The notes beneath the pieces are model-generated. The model did not search any database, was not told the origin of the DNA, and saw only the letters and a list, made by a program, of their open reading frames with translations. A program made the position numbers and the translations under genes. Positions 932 to 37,899 of a stretch of DNA of 55,154 nt are shown in pieces (position 1 is the first letter of the stretch; every line of letters begins with the position of its first letter). Source of the DNA: Thermodesulfovibrionales bacterium (GTDB lineage: Bacteria > Nitrospirota > Thermodesulfovibrionia > Thermodesulfovibrionales > JdFR-86). The stretch spans positions 1-55,154 of the forward strand of contig JAUXOF010000060.1 in NCBI GenBank assembly GCA_030682405.1. Reading direction: 5' to 3'.

Positions 932-1780
932 TTATTTTCCTTGTGCAAACAGGTCAAATGTCTGAGTAAGCGTCTTACCGTTTTTTTGCCGAATAAAATC
1001 TAATCTGTATTCGTCTTTTATTTTTCCATTGTTGTCTAACCGGTTCAAAATCATTTGATAATAGTCAGGATGGATTTCGCAACTAATAAAATTTCTTTTT
1101 AGATTTTTACACAAAACAATTTCAGAGCCGCTACCGCCAAAGAGAATAAATACATCGTCATCGTCTTGTGTGCAAGATTTAATAAGCATTTCAACGAGAG
1201 GCAATGGAATTTGACAAGCGTGAAATGTCTTATCCTTAGAAACATTTTTTACAAGGTCAAAATAAAACCAAGAATAAGGCATACGCCCTTTGTGTCCTTC
1301 CGCAATTCGTTGTAAAATTCTTTTGTCTATCGGATTAAGATACGGCTGTGCAACATTGTCTTTGTAAAAATGATTGTCTTTGCTTTTTGTTGCGTGAAGA
1401 ATAGAACGGTGTGCAGTAGTAAATCTTTTGGGGCTATGTCCGACATTCGTGTTGTATGTCCAAACATAATCTTGCACATCATAAGCATTGTCATCCAAAT
1501 ATTTTACTCTTAAATGAGCGTTTTGCTTTGGATAATTCATCATAAATAAATTTCCAGTTGGCTTCAACACACGCATACATTCTTTCGTCAATTCAATATA
1601 CCAGTCAATGTATTCGTTCCATTTAGTTTTGTAATTTTTCCCAGCGTAGTTAATGCCGACATTGTAATCAGGGTCGCCATATACCATATCCAAACTTTTG
1701 TCAGGCAGTTGTTTTAAGATTATCAAAACATCTTCGTTGAATACTTTGTTTCTGAAATTATTTATTTTCTCAATCCTCAT
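932..1780 (-). CDS. Site-specific DNA methyltransferase, beta class (N6-A/N4-C)
   Basis: Catalytic motif DPDY (DPPY variant) precedes the SAM-binding motif LFGGSGS; HACQIP motif present. Start moved to ATG 1780, just after the upstream gene's stop. Confidence 0.9.
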   Translation of the reverse strand: MRIEKINNFRNKVFNEDVLIILKQLPDKSLDMVYGDPDYNVGINYAGKNYKTKWNEYIDWYIELTKECMRVLKPTGNLFMMNYPKQNAHLRVKYLDDNAYDVQDYVWTYNTNVGHSPKRFTTAHRSILHATKSKDNHFYKDNVAQPYLNPIDKRILQRIAEGHKGRMPYSWFYFDLVKNVSKDKTFHACQIPLPLVEMLIKSCTQDDDDVFILFGGSGSEIVLCKNLKRNFISCEIHPDYYQMILNRLDNNGKIKDEYRLDFIRQKNGKTLTQTFDLFAQGK

Positions 1781-1785
1781 ACGAT

Positions 1786-2595
1786 TCAACTTTCTAAATA
1801 TGGGTTTAAATCTTTCAACAATTTTCCATTTGAAAGCACACAAATACCTCTTGATTTTGCAAACATTTGAATTGTGGATGTAATTAACTTTACATCTATT
1901 ATTCCTTTCTTTTCTGTTTTATGGATAATGTCCAAAATGAAATTACTAATCATCAGCGGTGCGCTAATCACACTAAGTATTGTATTTACTCTGCCAACTC
2001 TTTTACCGTTTCTTTTGAAATCAGGTTTTCCCCTGACAGTGTGATATTTTACATCTTCATTCCAGCCAAGTAAATCTATAAAATGCAAATACTCCAGTAA
2101 TCCAATTTCTTTGGTTCTGAATTTATCCATAAATCCGTCTTTCAAGCCAAACTCAATTTTATCAATATAACTTGATAAATCCTTAGAAGGTAAATATCGG
2201 AATTTGCCTTCTTCAATTTCTTGATGGTCTATTAGAAAACAATTCCGATAAAGTATTACTAAAACTTTCTTGAAAGTAATTTGATTGATAATTGAAATCT
2301 TGATGAGATATTCCCAAATTTTTTCAAATGCCCAACTTTCAGTTTCGCTTATTCCGTTTGCGCCAACAGTGGGCGACATATCATATACATTTGGTCTTCT
2401 TCTTAAAATTTCCTTTCCAGGCTTAAAAAAGTATGCTTCTTTTTCGTTAGGCAAAGCGGATATTAAATGCTTTATAGGATTTTCTATTGTTCCACCTTCA
2501 AAAGCAATAGCTTCCTCAATCCTTTTTGTTCTTTTAGCAATAAACTCTTTATTGCTCTTAAAGATTTTTGTCGTTATTATGTCGTGTTCTGTCAT
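1786..2595 (-). CDS. Putative type II restriction endonuclease (family not recognised)
   Basis: AT-rich ORF directly upstream of and co-oriented with the MTase. Start set at ATG 2595 because the extension to 2694 lies in a repeat. Function inferred from context. Confidence 0.55.
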   Translation of the reverse strand: MTEHDIITTKIFKSNKEFIAKRTKRIEEAIAFEGGTIENPIKHLISALPNEKEAYFFKPGKEILRRRPNVYDMSPTVGANGISETESWAFEKIWEYLIKISIINQITFKKVLVILYRNCFLIDHQEIEEGKFRYLPSKDLSSYIDKIEFGLKDGFMDKFRTKEIGLLEYLHFIDLLGWNEDVKYHTVRGKPDFKRNGKRVGRVNTILSVISAPLMISNFILDIIHKTEKKGIIDVKLITSTIQMFAKSRGICVLSNGKLLKDLNPYLES

Positions 2596-2601
2596 ATTAC
2601 T

Positions 2602-2697
2602 GATGTTGTCCCTTCCTTTTGTTGCCAAAGGCTCATAGAGAAGCAGGAAGGACTCCGTTACACATATCCTAAGCAGCCGCCTCCTTCCTGTCAAGAT
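2602..2697 (-). mobile_element. IS256-like right-end remnant with outward promoter (copy 1)
   Basis: Near-identical to 37378-37486 apart from small insertions. Minus strand encodes ...NLDRKEAAA* and has TTGACA-N17-TAGGAT, ending in GGGACAACATC. Confidence 0.55.
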
Positions 2698-2832
2698 TTT
2701 TCTGCCCCAGATTTTTCTGCTGACGACAAACGAACGGCGGTCTTAGAAAACAAAACCCACTTTTATGACGCACACCCAATAATGATTGGGTCATTGACCC
2801 TTGGTTTATCCGTTAAGTTATAATAAGACATT

Positions 2833-34505: not shown

Positions 34506-35129
34506 TCAGGCCTTCGCCTTTTTGGCCAATGCCCTTAACTTCTTCGTTACAGCAGGGGATGCCAATGACTTAAGCAGCCTCTCCTTGAGCTTTTTGTCCT
34601 TAATCCCGGAGACGGCTCCGGCCCTCAATTTTCCGAGCGAGCCAAGATACGTGCCGAAAATATCCGGATAAAGAGTCTCAAGCTCCATCCTTATCGTCTT
34701 TGCCATGGCAGGGCTTGTGCCTGAGGTGGAGACTGCAATTACAAGCGGCCCTCTCCGGACTGTGGAAGGCACTATGAAGCTGCAAAGAGAAGGCGTGTCC
34801 ACGACATTGACAGGGGTATTTCCGGCATCGGATGAAACCCTCTTGTTCTCCTCATAAGAGTCCGTGGCCGCTATGACAAGGAACGCCCCCCTGAGGTCCG
34901 ATTTCCTGTAAGGCCGGCTTATGTGCCTGAACCTGCCTTTTGTTTTTTCCTTCTGGAGATTTACGCTCAGCCCGGGGCTTATGACCCTGACGGAAGCCCC
35001 AGCCTTAAGCAGGGCCATGACCTTTCTTCCGGCAACCCTGCCTCCGCCGACGACAACGCAGTCCCTGCCCTTGAGGTCAAGGAATACGGGATAGTAGCAG
35101 TTATTTGTCACTTTCCTTTGGCGCGGCAA
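34506..35129 (-). CDS. Precorrin-2 dehydrogenase / sirohydrochlorin ferrochelatase (SirC/Met8-like)
   Basis: YPVFLDL, VVGGGRVA, NVVD, STSGTSP. Confidence 0.93.
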   Translation of the reverse strand: MPRQRKVTNNCYYPVFLDLKGRDCVVVGGGRVAGRKVMALLKAGASVRVISPGLSVNLQKEKTKGRFRHISRPYRKSDLRGAFLVIAATDSYEENKRVSSDAGNTPVNVVDTPSLCSFIVPSTVRRGPLVIAVSTSGTSPAMAKTIRMELETLYPDIFGTYLGSLGKLRAGAVSGIKDKKLKERLLKSLASPAVTKKLRALAKKAKA

Positions 35130-35868
35130 AGGCCTTTTTCGCCTCCTCCAATGCCTTGCTTTCCGGGTATTTTTCGGAAAGGAGCTTCATGTACCCGTCC
35201 GCCTTTTCCCCCTCGCCGAGTTCCCTGTATGAAACCGCAATGCGGTATAGGGCATCAGCCTCCTTTTTATATTCAGGGAATTGCTCAAGCAGCCCCAGAA
35301 ACCTTCCGAGCGCCCCTTTATATACCTTCTTCTTGAAATAAAAATTGCCGACCATGAACTCGTAGTCCGCCATTATATCCCTGCACCTTTGCATCTTCGG
35401 CGCCACGTCCTCTGCATACGGGTTCCTCGGGTGCTTCCGCATGAGGGCCTCAAACTCCGCAAGGGCCTTCACAGTAGCGGCATACCCCCTTTCCATGTCT
35501 TCTATCTGGCCGTAGTAGACCATGGCGATTTGGTACTGGGCGTAAGGCGCAAACTTGTAATCGGGATAAAGCTCAAGAAAGGCCCTGAACTCTTCAACCG
35601 CAAGGTCGGACTCCTCCTCCTTAAGATACGAATCCCCTATCCTGAGTGCGGCAAGCGGGCCGTAGACCCCCATTGCATCCTTGCCTTTGACCTCGTTCAG
35701 GAGCTTCCTTGCCTCTTCAAATTTTTTCTTCTCCATGAAATCGTTCGCCTTCGTGTACGCCGCCTCCGGGTCGAAACTGACGGGTTTCACGCCTTTCTTA
35801 GCGCACCCGGCAAAGACAACAATGTGGAGGATAAGCGCGGCATAGGCCAGTAAGCGTAATTTCCTCAT
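35101..35868 (-). CDS. bamD: Outer membrane protein assembly lipoprotein BamD
   Basis: Lipobox FAGC after MRKLR; TPR repeats. The ORF extension to 35979 is judged non-BamD. Confidence 0.92.
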   Translation of the reverse strand: MRKLRLLAYAALILHIVVFAGCAKKGVKPVSFDPEAAYTKANDFMEKKKFEEARKLLNEVKGKDAMGVYGPLAALRIGDSYLKEEESDLAVEEFRAFLELYPDYKFAPYAQYQIAMVYYGQIEDMERGYAATVKALAEFEALMRKHPRNPYAEDVAPKMQRCRDIMADYEFMVGNFYFKKKVYKGALGRFLGLLEQFPEYKKEADALYRIAVSYRELGEGEKADGYMKLLSEKYPESKALEEAKKAFAAPKESDK

Positions 35869-35899
35869 CCTGTTATTAAAGCCTTTCAGAATTGTTTTC

Positions 35900-36067
35900 G
35901 TCAAGGACACCCCGCCGTCCCTCATCTCCCTGATCCTGCCGTTTACTTTTCTCTCCATTTTGCGGTATCTTTTCCCCATAGAAAGCGACCTCCTTTTGAT
36001 TTGTTTTCAGCGAATCATTTTAATCGGGGGTCGCTTCCTACTTCAACAACTTACAGGGACATCATCC
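35900..36067 (-). mobile_element. IS256-like left-end remnant with a truncated transposase start
   Basis: GGATGATGTCCC...GTTGAAGTAGGAAG repeat (36067-36034), an SD-sequestering hairpin (AAGCGACC...GGTCGCTT), then MGKRYRKMERKVNGRIREMR. The family call is recall-based. Confidence 0.5.
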
Positions 36068-37351
36068 ATGACCTGAGAGCGAGAAACGTTGAAAGTTCTC
36101 CTTATCAAGCTCGTTATCTATCTTCATTAAAGGCTCCGGCTCAAGATTAAAGAGAAAAGCTACGCCGAAAATATTCATTATAAAAGGCGTGCCCGGATTT
36201 AATATAAAATGAGTTCCTTCTATATGACCGCAGGGAGTGCATTGCTTGCTAATAAAAAGATTGTTTGGAAAAGAACGTTTGCCAAGAATGAAATCTCGTG
36301 CGGTATCGTATCTGCAATCTAACGCCATAGGCAGACCATTGCGTATGCAGATTATTCCTAGTGCAATTTTATAAAGAGACCGCCCCAGAAGCTTAGGGTC
36401 GAATTTCTTTCTGCCTTGCATAGATAATGTGCCTCTAACATGTTCACCGGTTTCTTCCATGTTGAGTCCAAACTTAGGATTATTCTGCTTGATTATTATT
36501 TCCCTTGGACTAATTTTCTCAATAGCCATGTTCTGATACCGTGCTGTCAGAAATTTACCCGTCTTAGGATTGTAAGGTAGAACCAATGTCCTTAAGAAAG
36601 ATATAATGTCGTGTTCTACTAACTGCTGGTCTAATTCTGAAAGGACACCATTGTTACAATTATCACATACTTGACCTGGCGGAAGGATTACTTCAGTATT
36701 TCCCAAAGACTCGGGATAAACATGTTCTTCAGATTTAAAGCTTCCAGTTTTAGTTAAGCAATATATGCACTGATGAGATTTGACATTGTTGGGCTCTGGA
36801 ATGTGCTTCGTTTTTTCAGCTTCTCTTATAATGTTGTATAAATACTCACATAACTTGTAGACATCAAAGCAGTATGAATAAAATGCATATATCATATATT
36901 GAGGAATTATAAGATATCCGTGAAGGTCTTTAATTCTATTAGCTTCAATTTCTTTCTCGTCAAAAAACTCACCCTTAGAGTAAATAAGGTAAAAGTCCAG
37001 TCCACGTAATCGTTCGCCAGTTTTCTTGAGCTCTAATAGTATTGGCCCCGTTTCTAACAATTGAACTTCTTTATCGAAAAGTTCCTTATCCGATGAAGGA
37101 ATGAAACCATTTTCGAGTAAGAGAGTAGCAATATCTTTATAATTCAATCTGCTTCCTGGATCAGCTAATGGTTTAATGACTGTAGCAAAACGTGCAATTT
37201 CGTGTTTCGGGGGAAGCCGCAAATTTATATTCGCGCCCTTATTAATTTCGAAATTGAAACTAAAGCCAATGTCTTTCTTGGGCATAGCTTCAACCGCACT
37301 TCTCACAAGATGAAATTGGTTCTTGAATTTTTTTAATTTATCCCAATCCAT
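36062..37351 (-). CDS. HNH endonuclease (HNH_5-like) fused to an unknown N-terminal helical domain
   Basis: CIYC...EHVYPESLGN...VCDNCNN; AT-rich. Confidence 0.85.
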   Translation of the reverse strand: MDWDKLKKFKNQFHLVRSAVEAMPKKDIGFSFNFEINKGANINLRLPPKHEIARFATVIKPLADPGSRLNYKDIATLLLENGFIPSSDKELFDKEVQLLETGPILLELKKTGERLRGLDFYLIYSKGEFFDEKEIEANRIKDLHGYLIIPQYMIYAFYSYCFDVYKLCEYLYNIIREAEKTKHIPEPNNVKSHQCIYCLTKTGSFKSEEHVYPESLGNTEVILPPGQVCDNCNNGVLSELDQQLVEHDIISFLRTLVLPYNPKTGKFLTARYQNMAIEKISPREIIIKQNNPKFGLNMEETGEHVRGTLSMQGRKKFDPKLLGRSLYKIALGIICIRNGLPMALDCRYDTARDFILGKRSFPNNLFISKQCTPCGHIEGTHFILNPGTPFIMNIFGVAFLFNLEPEPLMKIDNELDKENFQRFSLSGHG

Positions 37352-37377
37352 TTGATAATTCCTTCTTACGAGCGTTT

Positions 37378-37486
37378 GGATGTTGTCCCTTCTTTTCGTT
37401 GAAGTAGGAAGGACTCCGGCCTGCCTGTGCGATGCACGCAGACAGGTTACATTATACTAAGCCGCCTCCTTCCTGTCAGGAGATTT
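37378..37486 (-). mobile_element. IS256-like right-end remnant with outward promoter (copy 2)
   Basis: 34-bp inverted repeat partner of 36034-36067 (27/34). Minus strand has CTGACA-N17-TATAAT and encodes ...DRKEAA*. Homologous to 2602-2697. Confidence 0.6.
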
Positions 37487-37528
37487 TTTGCTGCAACCGC
37501 CCGCGAATAGATTCATCCACAGGTCTCT

Positions 37529-37855
37529 TCACCCTCTTTTCCTGAAGACCTTCATGCCCGGCATAACGAGTTCAAGCCCGTTCATGAGACGCTGGGGTAT
37601 GGTCTCGGCCTCTCCGAGCACAAGGCAGCCGTTTTTGGAAAGGCAACCGGAGAGGTATTTCAAAACCCTTTCGTTGAGTTCCCGCTCGAAGTATATGAGG
37701 ACATTACGGCAGAGGATAAGATGATAATCCGAAAATATCCCCTCCCTCGGAGGAGTGCGGCTTGCAAGGTCGTGGTATATGAATGTCACCATAGACCGTA
37801 TCTCGTCCTTAAGCCTGCAAGCATCGCCATTTTACCTGATAAAATATTTATCCAT
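37529..37855 (-). pseudogene. cheR: CheR methyltransferase C-terminal fragment
   Basis: ILCRNVLIYF and LVLGEAE motifs. In-frame TAA at 37832-37834 within DKYFIR*NGD...LKDEIRSMVTF. N-terminal part absent. Confidence 0.8.
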
Positions 37856-37899
37856 CGGGCATATTCGTCTCCCCGCAGGCATCTTCGTCTCCCCGGTCG

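Follow-up and report, generated by a model that had tools for sequence, protein, structure and literature searches.

Pruned ends of an IS256-family insertion sequence carry a predicted outward promoter and precede foreign genes in a Thermodesulfovibrionales genome

The genome of a Thermodesulfovibrionales bacterium (Nitrospirota; GenBank assembly GCA_030682405.1) carries, on contig JAUXOF010000060.1, an intact, AT-rich HNH nuclease gene set between two truncated ends of an IS256-family insertion sequence (IS). The window analysed here is the whole of this contig (55,154 nt), contig C52 of the genome referred to as G000 (2.03 Mb, 87 contigs, 52% GC); other genomes, contigs and loci are cited by G, C and L numbers where they have to be told apart. 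We propose, with a probability of about 60%, that copies of this IS, pruned to ends that retain a putative outward-facing promoter, drive foreign genes in this genome, here the HNH gene. Established here are which IS the ends come from, how they are oriented and how often they occur, that the cargo is foreign and intact, and that GC content is asymmetric around the ends. From these patterns we infer promoter activity, selection for keeping the promoter-bearing end, the order of events and a defence role of the HNH protein.

An earlier note on this DNA had drawn attention to an inverted repeat around a single AT-rich HNH gene, to the stop codon of that gene inside the left repeat, to a ...DRKEAA* coding tail with a CTGACA-N17-TATAAT site aimed at the cargo (37479->37451), and to a hairpin occluding the Shine-Dalgarno (SD) sequence of a short open reading frame (ORF) start (MGKRYRKMERKVNGRIREMR); all of these are present. 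A repeat finder recovers one long inverted pair, 36034-36068 versus 37377-37411 (35 nt, 80% complementary), whose arms hold an exact 14-mer, CTTCCTACTTCAAC, and enclose a single ORF of 429 aa. The left and right terminal inverted repeats (IRL and IRR) are equal at 27 of 34 positions, with a perfect 14-bp core. Since there are 12 copies of the 14-mer in the genome (2.03 Mb), each within one of two conserved end types, it is no chance repeat; the arms are the ends of an intact IS, which rules out a chance origin. We also rejected the arms as the terminal repeats of an HNH-carrying transposon: the IS homology extends outward for 120-150 nt and the termini face inward.

Read along the minus strand, the locus consists of a CheR pseudogene fragment, the 3' remnant of the IS (the tail: transposase C terminus with embedded promoter, hairpin and IRR), 27 nt containing an SD, the HNH gene, the 5' remnant of the IS (the head: IRL, SD-covering hairpin and 19 transposase codons), and bamD (Table 1). 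Both IS termini abut the cargo, both IS interiors face away, and the remnants lie in direct orientation, the "inside-out" arrangement of directly oriented inner ends that the earlier note had described. The junction at the head is tight: the HNH stop codon (TGA, 36064-36062) sits within the first five bases of the IS terminus GATGATG, and these five bases complete the last sense codon and the stop. GC content is 0.34-0.41 over the HNH gene versus 0.49-0.58 in both flanks.

Both remnants match an intact IS copy of 1444 bp at C50:1-1444 of the same genome (BLAST), and the ends and peptides are IS256-like as had been suggested. The transposase ORF of this copy (C50:88-1368, 426 aa) starts with MGKRYRKMERKVNGRIRE, ends in DRKEAAA*, and matches Pfam PF00872 Transposase_mut (2e-34) and the NCBIfam IS256 family model NF033543 (226.8 bits; cut-off, 150). 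Elements of the IS256 family have terminal inverted repeats of roughly 24-41 bp and a length of 1.2-1.5 kb, and they generate target-site duplications of 8-9 bp. The C50 copy displays the DDE transposase of Mutator/IS256 type, the terminal inverted repeats and the size of this family. Full copies sit at contig ends, so that no copy shows both of its flanks. The ends of the IS are nearly the same in three genera.

The tail beside the HNH gene is 118 nt long and retains the last 9 or so transposase codons (...SPDRKEAA*), in which a full -35/-10 pair is embedded. Both hexamers lie inside the IS end, within the 16-18 nt spacing range of outward promoters, and the site points through the IRR toward the HNH gene. 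A promoter scan of the region returned 3 sites versus 4.6 +/- 2.6 in shuffles, a count not above chance; the case for the CTGACA-17-TATAAT site rests on its quality and conservation and not on count. Transcription from this site is predicted to begin near 37444; the RNA would have a stem-loop at its 5' end, cross the IRR and reach the SD of the HNH gene within 27 nt past the terminus. A look-up of sequencing runs that contain the stretch returned no RNA run. The fold of 37340-37452(-) has a free energy of -31.3 kcal/mol (z -1.93), and the stem-loop insert also occurs in C2, C50, C77 and G004:C81. The window tail is 90% identical to a solo tail at C2:51015-51130 and groups with it and with one in G004:C81, the hairpin variant being common to them. 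Contigs of other tail copies diverge from the window at 37377-37379, that is, at the IRR terminus.

The tail is a recurrent feature of this genome. The promoter motif TTGACAGRAAGGNGGNGGCTGCTTA (<=2 mismatches) has 16 sites in G000, 8 in G004 and 7 in G009, and none in the other 8 genomes of the family; a reversed control has none in any genome. Counting diverged copies, G000 contains about 20 IRR tails. Several of them extend further into the transposase 3' end, starting at IS positions 1244-1301; the left edge of most lies no more than some 15 nt upstream of the -35. The earlier note had named ends unlike any intact IS and a lack of further copies among the conditions that would refute its reading; the C50 copy and these tails exclude both.

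We listed the genes that follow the copies, as the earlier note had suggested. At 14 of 18 IRR termini, a co-directional gene encoding 100 aa or more, or a small toxin-antitoxin-like operon, starts 5-178 nt downstream (the four without are C25:18156, C50, C56 and C62:56599). The 1 kb following the terminus has a GC content below 0.43 in 9/18 cases, versus 3.0% of 3920 genome windows (binomial p about 7e-10, with copies that are not fully independent), and the upstream sides range from 0.46 to 0.59 in all 18. Given this asymmetry, the tail marks where native DNA gives way to foreign DNA, toward which it points. In G004 and G009, GC is lower downstream than upstream in 12/15 tails, which is of the same sign but weaker and with small margins.

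Many of the genes behind tails are of defence type. They comprise AbiLi/AbiLii; an Eco57I-type methylase with a BsuBI/PstI endonuclease; a 1669-aa SF1 helicase with an MTES_1575/DUF559 nuclease domain (PADLOC PDC-S37, MkoC and Hhe; PDC-S37/Mokosh-like); an ankyrin protein matching PDC-M72A; and a type II methylase with a 269-aa ORF, which lies in the same window (932-2595). Defence-like cargo further includes an HSDR_N_2 nuclease-like protein, an SDH-type ClpP-like protease and a DUF2281/weak YafQ-like pair. The recurring, promoter-equipped cassette envisaged in the earlier note is upheld in one half: the promoter-bearing end does recur before foreign defence-type genes, but the two-ended unit is unique and only one solo head exists.

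The methylase pair in the window is preceded by a second solo tail, made up of promoter and IRR, and its first ATG lies 6 nt past the IRR terminus. The 269-aa ORF (GC 0.31) has no family match, and its neighbour (GC 0.34) is a type II N6/N4 DNA methyltransferase. The locus at 932-2720 is probably a restriction-modification system driven by its tail.

We consider the most likely role of the tails to be the supply of a promoter and a structured 5' leader to genes that would have arrived without a usable promoter. In a genome this small, deletion would trim the useless IS body to the smallest piece that still promotes, and the retention of the tail where the body was lost is consistent with selection for the promoter. 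The body is commonly lost in this IS family, as shown by internal-deletion derivatives in relatives: G009:C13 (locus L180) joins IS positions 4-56 to 1231-1444, and G004:C87 (L017) joins 1-37 to 934-1444. The former, at about 270 bp, is a true form resembling a miniature inverted-repeat transposable element (MITE). Neither derivative has a target duplication around it. The window unit itself does not qualify as a MITE, with both of its termini facing the cargo, and tails as two-ended miniature elements were likewise rejected: solo tails show no consistent IRL-like left end or target duplication.

Heads are far scarcer than tails. A sensitive search with both termini found only four IRL heads in the genome (C14 end, C17 start, C50 start and the window) versus about 20 IRR tails; the heads of C14, C17 and C50 are the edges of collapsed full IS copies, and the window head is the only solo one. 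It matches the active IS at 140/143 positions before the break (about 98%), compared with 84% for the tail, and because of this difference the two ends appear to be of different age. In the sequence of events that we favour, an older tail-HNH unit would have come first, and an active IS would later have inserted at the 3' edge of the HNH gene. This IS would then have lost everything past position 145-153, and would now provide the HNH gene with its stop codon.

The earlier note had instead derived both ends from one composite event. Under that scheme, the HNH gene would have been carried between two directly repeated IS copies whose bodies and outer ends were later deleted. The direct orientation of the remnants, the precise junctions at the IS termini, the onset of native-GC DNA just outside the remnants and a foreign segment on C62 that likewise lies between two inward-facing IRR ends are all in keeping with it. 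The ends, however, belong to different subtypes as well as differing in divergence, and other low-GC cargoes have a tail at one side only. Searches for outer ends, a target duplication and a second copy of the tail-HNH-head unit found none; only IS positions 1-153 and 1327-1444 remain, with no direct repeat visible on inspection at 35914/37496. The nine bases beside the two termini differ, which rules out an origin from one IS on a small circular donor that formed a cointegrate. Tn4001 is a composite transposon bounded by IS256 copies, and like it the window has cargo between IS256-type copies with inner ends facing the cargo; unlike Tn4001, it lacks intact copies and outer ends and shows no sign of mobility, and its ends differ in age. 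We regard a decayed composite transposon as unlikely, and two separate events fit better. As a unit, the two-ended cassette neither recurs nor is demonstrably mobile.

The cargo gene is intact and alien to its surroundings. Its sole Pfam match, to HNH_5, covers residues 195-247 (3.5e-8; 33.7 bits versus a cut-off of 27.5), and the ligand residues expected of an HNH/His-Me finger are in place: C195, C198, H210, C229, C232 and N233 are invariant across 26 sequences. The protein aligns end to end with homologues of 429-441 aa, so the gene can be taken as intact. It is single copy in the genome. Its nearest relative (P0002) is 79% identical and others at most 67%, and the homologues are scattered over many phyla. 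Homologue GC is below that of the flanks in 19/20 loci, and about half of these 20 loci have restriction-modification, Mrr, HEPN, T5orf172, integrase or transposase genes nearby, with no conserved partner gene.

A search of PADLOC with the HNH protein gave no family at E <= 1, and NCBIfam models and sequence searches of solved chains gave no match beyond the HNH motif. Its AlphaFold (AF2) model is confident (pLDDT 91.5). Foldseek against the PDB returned nothing at E <= 0.001, and a wide structural search gave weak helical-bundle matches to residues 1-187 only, the best being the HEPN toxin 8xdj_A (Z 7.1; root mean square deviation, 3.4; 115 aligned), below the level deemed meaningful. With neither a curated defence model nor a conserved partner among these searches, the protein would be best described as a stand-alone nuclease of defence-island type.

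Had the HNH gene been a vertically conserved resident of this interval, the earlier note's reading would have lost its footing. A 4.6-kb query of the locus has matches somewhere in 26/31 genomes, but its HNH part matches G000 only and none of the 30 relatives. The bamD and sirohaem-synthase pair is conserved in G003, G004, G005 and G007, and the GGR block in G004 and G005; in both of the latter the pair and the block were located on separate contigs, each beside other genes. The relatives are from other genera and share only short synteny with this genome. The comparison indicates that the HNH gene is not a vertically conserved resident here, and the relatives are too distant to date its arrival.

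No ends of this IS family were found beside HNH homologues in 160 related loci, whose homologues are at most 50% identical. At two loci of unrelated records, one on a metagenome contig and one on a contig of a metagenome-assembled genome (L028:2860-5317 and L110:3995-7489), an IS256-family transposase gene or fragment adjoins a distant HNH homologue. In L028, the 3' part of the transposase lies directly upstream of and co-directional with the homologue. These associations could be coincidence.

Several observations weigh against the proposal that pruned IS ends drive these genes. Ordinary genes follow the tail in 5 of the 14 tail-led cases (a sugar transferase, a hydrogenase small subunit, two lipoproteins and a GGDEF protein). 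The left boundary is nearly common to several tails (those of C2, C53 and the window have a common subtype and boundary), and tails C59, C87 and C3 have an identical junction to a repeat that we call RepX. Random decay predicts neither near-uniform boundaries nor identical junctions, and some tails were therefore probably copied as units. The tails showed no target-site duplications. The promoter activity and the structured leader are predictions from sequence, the defence role of the HNH protein is drawn from its context, and the join from bamD through the head to the HNH gene passes through a multi-copy repeat of 143 nt, across which the contigs gave no independent bridge.

The near-uniform tail boundaries also speak for a more active scenario, in which the promoter and IRR would form a landing pad where incoming promoterless foreign DNA is joined. 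The joining would take place either through recombination at the 14-bp core of the inverted repeats or through the action of an IS256-family transposase on a solo end. The built-in promoter would express the joined DNA immediately, and the device would be used mainly for defence genes. The 9/18 IRR termini lying exactly at native-to-foreign GC boundaries, with native DNA upstream in 18/18, speak for such a role, as do the near-identity of the ends between genera and a tail in G004:C10 (L188) that terminates in an IRL-type half and thus shows exchange at the shared core. The cargo side, however, has no conserved site or repeat, target duplications are lacking among the tails searched, and the cargo starts at a variable distance (5-178 nt). 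Five ordinary native-GC genes carry tails as well, the GC asymmetry weakens in relatives, and catalysis on solo ends is purely hypothetical. We give this scenario a small chance of being correct.

A further concern is whether bamD and the HNH gene are true neighbours, or were mis-joined through the multi-copy IS head during assembly. In the source run the head unitig has a depth of 53.5, compared with about 9 for its neighbours, and none of the contigs listed spans 35953-36040 with the three variants of the window. Depth is even on both sides (7.2-9.9), the HNH gene does not differ in depth from its flanks in this run, which covers 96% of the stretch, and the repeat, at 143 nt, is below an ordinary read-pair span. 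The window head also carries three private differences from the consensus copy, and its truncated junction to bamD is unique. Even if there were a mis-join, the HNH unitig (36040-37433) has the IRL terminus at one side and 55 nt of tail at the other, so the bracketing of the HNH gene by IRL and IRR holds regardless. An assembly artefact thus appears highly improbable; that the IRL belongs to a truncated copy beside bamD rests on the deposited assembly. Groundwater runs X2, X3 and X5 have contigs on the bamD, CheR-fragment and GGR parts and not on HNH, and none joins across, from which absence is not inferable. A contig of run X2 (record 12) matches the 3' end of the HNH gene (36075-36184) with 7 differences in 110 nt and continues into 169 nt of sequence from outside the window.

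Among known systems, IS-borne outward promoters and "putative mobile promoters" come nearest to the recurring tail. According to the sections of the literature consulted, IS256, ISPaes3 and their relatives resemble the present element in their length of ~1.4 kb, a single DDE (Mutator-type) ORF and ~33-nt imperfect repeats. Complete outward promoters in IS termini are described there as an established way of activating neighbouring genes in several families (PMC9330008), and IS256-family elements are among those that can switch on their neighbours (PMC9330008, PMC3281130). The IS256-family promoters reported in the same sections are hybrids, with the -35 in the IS end and the -10 in the target (PMC9330008, PMC3281130); in contrast, the element here holds a complete -35/-10 pair, and only 153 + 118 nt of it remain. 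In ISEcp1, the ISPme1 "transposable modules" and the IS1380 family, an IRR-proximal promoter reads across the inverted repeat into foreign genes that start just past the terminus (PMC9330008), as is predicted here. Such elements remain intact and move adjacent DNA by means of outward-facing surrogate right ends, whereas here the IS body is gone and the far-side IS end, where present, faces inward.

The putative mobile promoters of Nijveen et al. are near-identical stretches upstream of unrelated genes, some of them matching IS (PMC3575422). These and promoter-bearing miniature elements such as Correia elements share with the tails the placement of promoter copies before unrelated genes and the sharing between genera (PMC3575422); the tails differ in being one-ended, traceable to one IS end, and concentrated at native/foreign borders before defence-type genes. 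As a functional analogy only, the Pc-attI region of integrons also places a fixed promoter just upstream of promoterless foreign genes, but there are no cassette arrays here and capture at the IRR terminus would be hypothetical. The tail pattern was not found in the literature searched, a narrow basis for calling it undescribed.

The activation of neighbours by IS elements is textbook knowledge, and the locus alone is ordinary; the genome-wide pattern is less so. One IS end has been reduced to a unit of ~120 nt (promoter, leader and terminal repeat) that is present in three genera and stands at a native/foreign border before about half of the genes downstream of it, among which restriction, abortive-infection and nuclease genes are numerous. 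If the promoter works, this would be a clear natural case of a small, deletion-prone genome expressing acquired defence genes, and the unit would offer a compact candidate promoter part for a little-studied groundwater lineage. Should the tails prove to be capture sites, they would represent a new route of gene acquisition, an integron-like device made from an insertion-sequence end.

Table 1. Features of the window, by position.
Feature	Position	Strand	Remarks
Cargo of the second tail	932..2595	(-)	269-aa ORF (GC 0.31); type II N6/N4 DNA methyltransferase (GC 0.34)
Second solo tail (promoter + IRR)	2602..2720	(-)	Terminus at 2602
bamD (YfiO) lipoprotein gene	35101..35868	(-)	Pfam YfiO, 2.3e-32
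Head, 5' remnant of the IS (positions 1 to about 145-153)	35914..36066	(-)	96% over 153 nt (BLAST)
Head hairpin over SD (35993-35989)	36041-35978	(-)	RNA fold
IRL	36034-36066	(-)	Part of the head
HNH_5 nuclease gene, intact, 429 aa	36062..37351	(-)	Pfam PF14279, sole Pfam match
Cargo segment between the IS termini	36067-37378	(-)	27 nt including SD ahead of the HNH ATG
Tail, 3' remnant of the IS (positions 1327-1444)	37379..37496	(-)	84.3% over 121 columns versus C50:1-1444 (BLAST)
IRR	37379..37411	(-)	Terminus ...GGGACAACATC at 37379
Stem-loop at the predicted transcript 5' end	37415..37441	(-)	Insert in only some tails
Predicted promoter CTGACA-N17-TATAAT, sigma-70-like, through IRR toward HNH	37451..37479	(-)	11/12 consensus positions
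CheR methyltransferase pseudogene fragment	37529..37792	(-)	Pfam CheR, 1.9e-13, profile positions 119-181 of 195

On the downstream side, the head retains the transposase ATG (35979) and 19 codons in frame with bamD, and the resulting ORF of 292 aa runs from the transposase codons through 35868-35979 (-) into bamD. The head hairpin pairs UAGGAAGCGACC.CC with GG.GGUCGCUUUCUA, buries the GGAGG SD and extends to the AUG of MGKRYRKMERKVNGRIREMR; its fold has a free energy of -30.6 kcal/mol (z -2.18), with 2/200 shuffles as stable. Hairpins in control of the IS10/IS50 type stop read-through transcripts from translating transposase. The head hairpin is of this kind, and it would sequester the transposase SD in read-through transcripts and leave the fusion frame untranslated; like the promoter, this occlusion is a prediction from sequence. 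The lipoprotein signal peptide begins at M38 (35868) of the 292-aa ORF, and the long form is therefore probably not made; the real start of bamD is likely MRKLRLL... at 35868. The 45 nt between head and bamD weakly resemble units made up of a RepX end plus promoter: in four comparisons of this junction with the RepX 3' end, 0/300, 3/300, 13/300 and 61/300 shuffles did as well, a resemblance too weak for any conclusion.

RepX, present in 36 copies, is about 75-90 nt long, ends in GGTTCGGTCAAACGAGGACAG and directly precedes 7 tails. It is often preceded by palindromic GGGGAGG/CCTCCCC units, and many copies are at contig ends; examples, all outside the window, are C59:11476, C7:31084 and C85:11871. 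G004 has a larger repeat of its own that ends in a tail, in three copies. Searches of Rfam with the tail, the head and RepX gave no family at E <= 1, save one chance-level small-RNA match.

The segment on C62 (54531-56717, L217) is a low-GC stretch between a diverged IRR, which follows RepX and a transposase fragment, and an inverted second tail; both flanking ends are of the IRR type, with their termini facing the cargo. Between them (54703-56457) lie two small ORFs that we read as BrnT/BrnA-like and a TIR protein (PADLOC bSEFIR). Upstream of the window tail, at a distance of 33 nt, the CheR fragment represents only the C-terminal 87 aa of the protein, and the genome has no close CheR paralogue. 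Just upstream of this pseudogene, within the region 37529-37895, are two 18-nt direct repeats (37858-37875 and 37878-37895).

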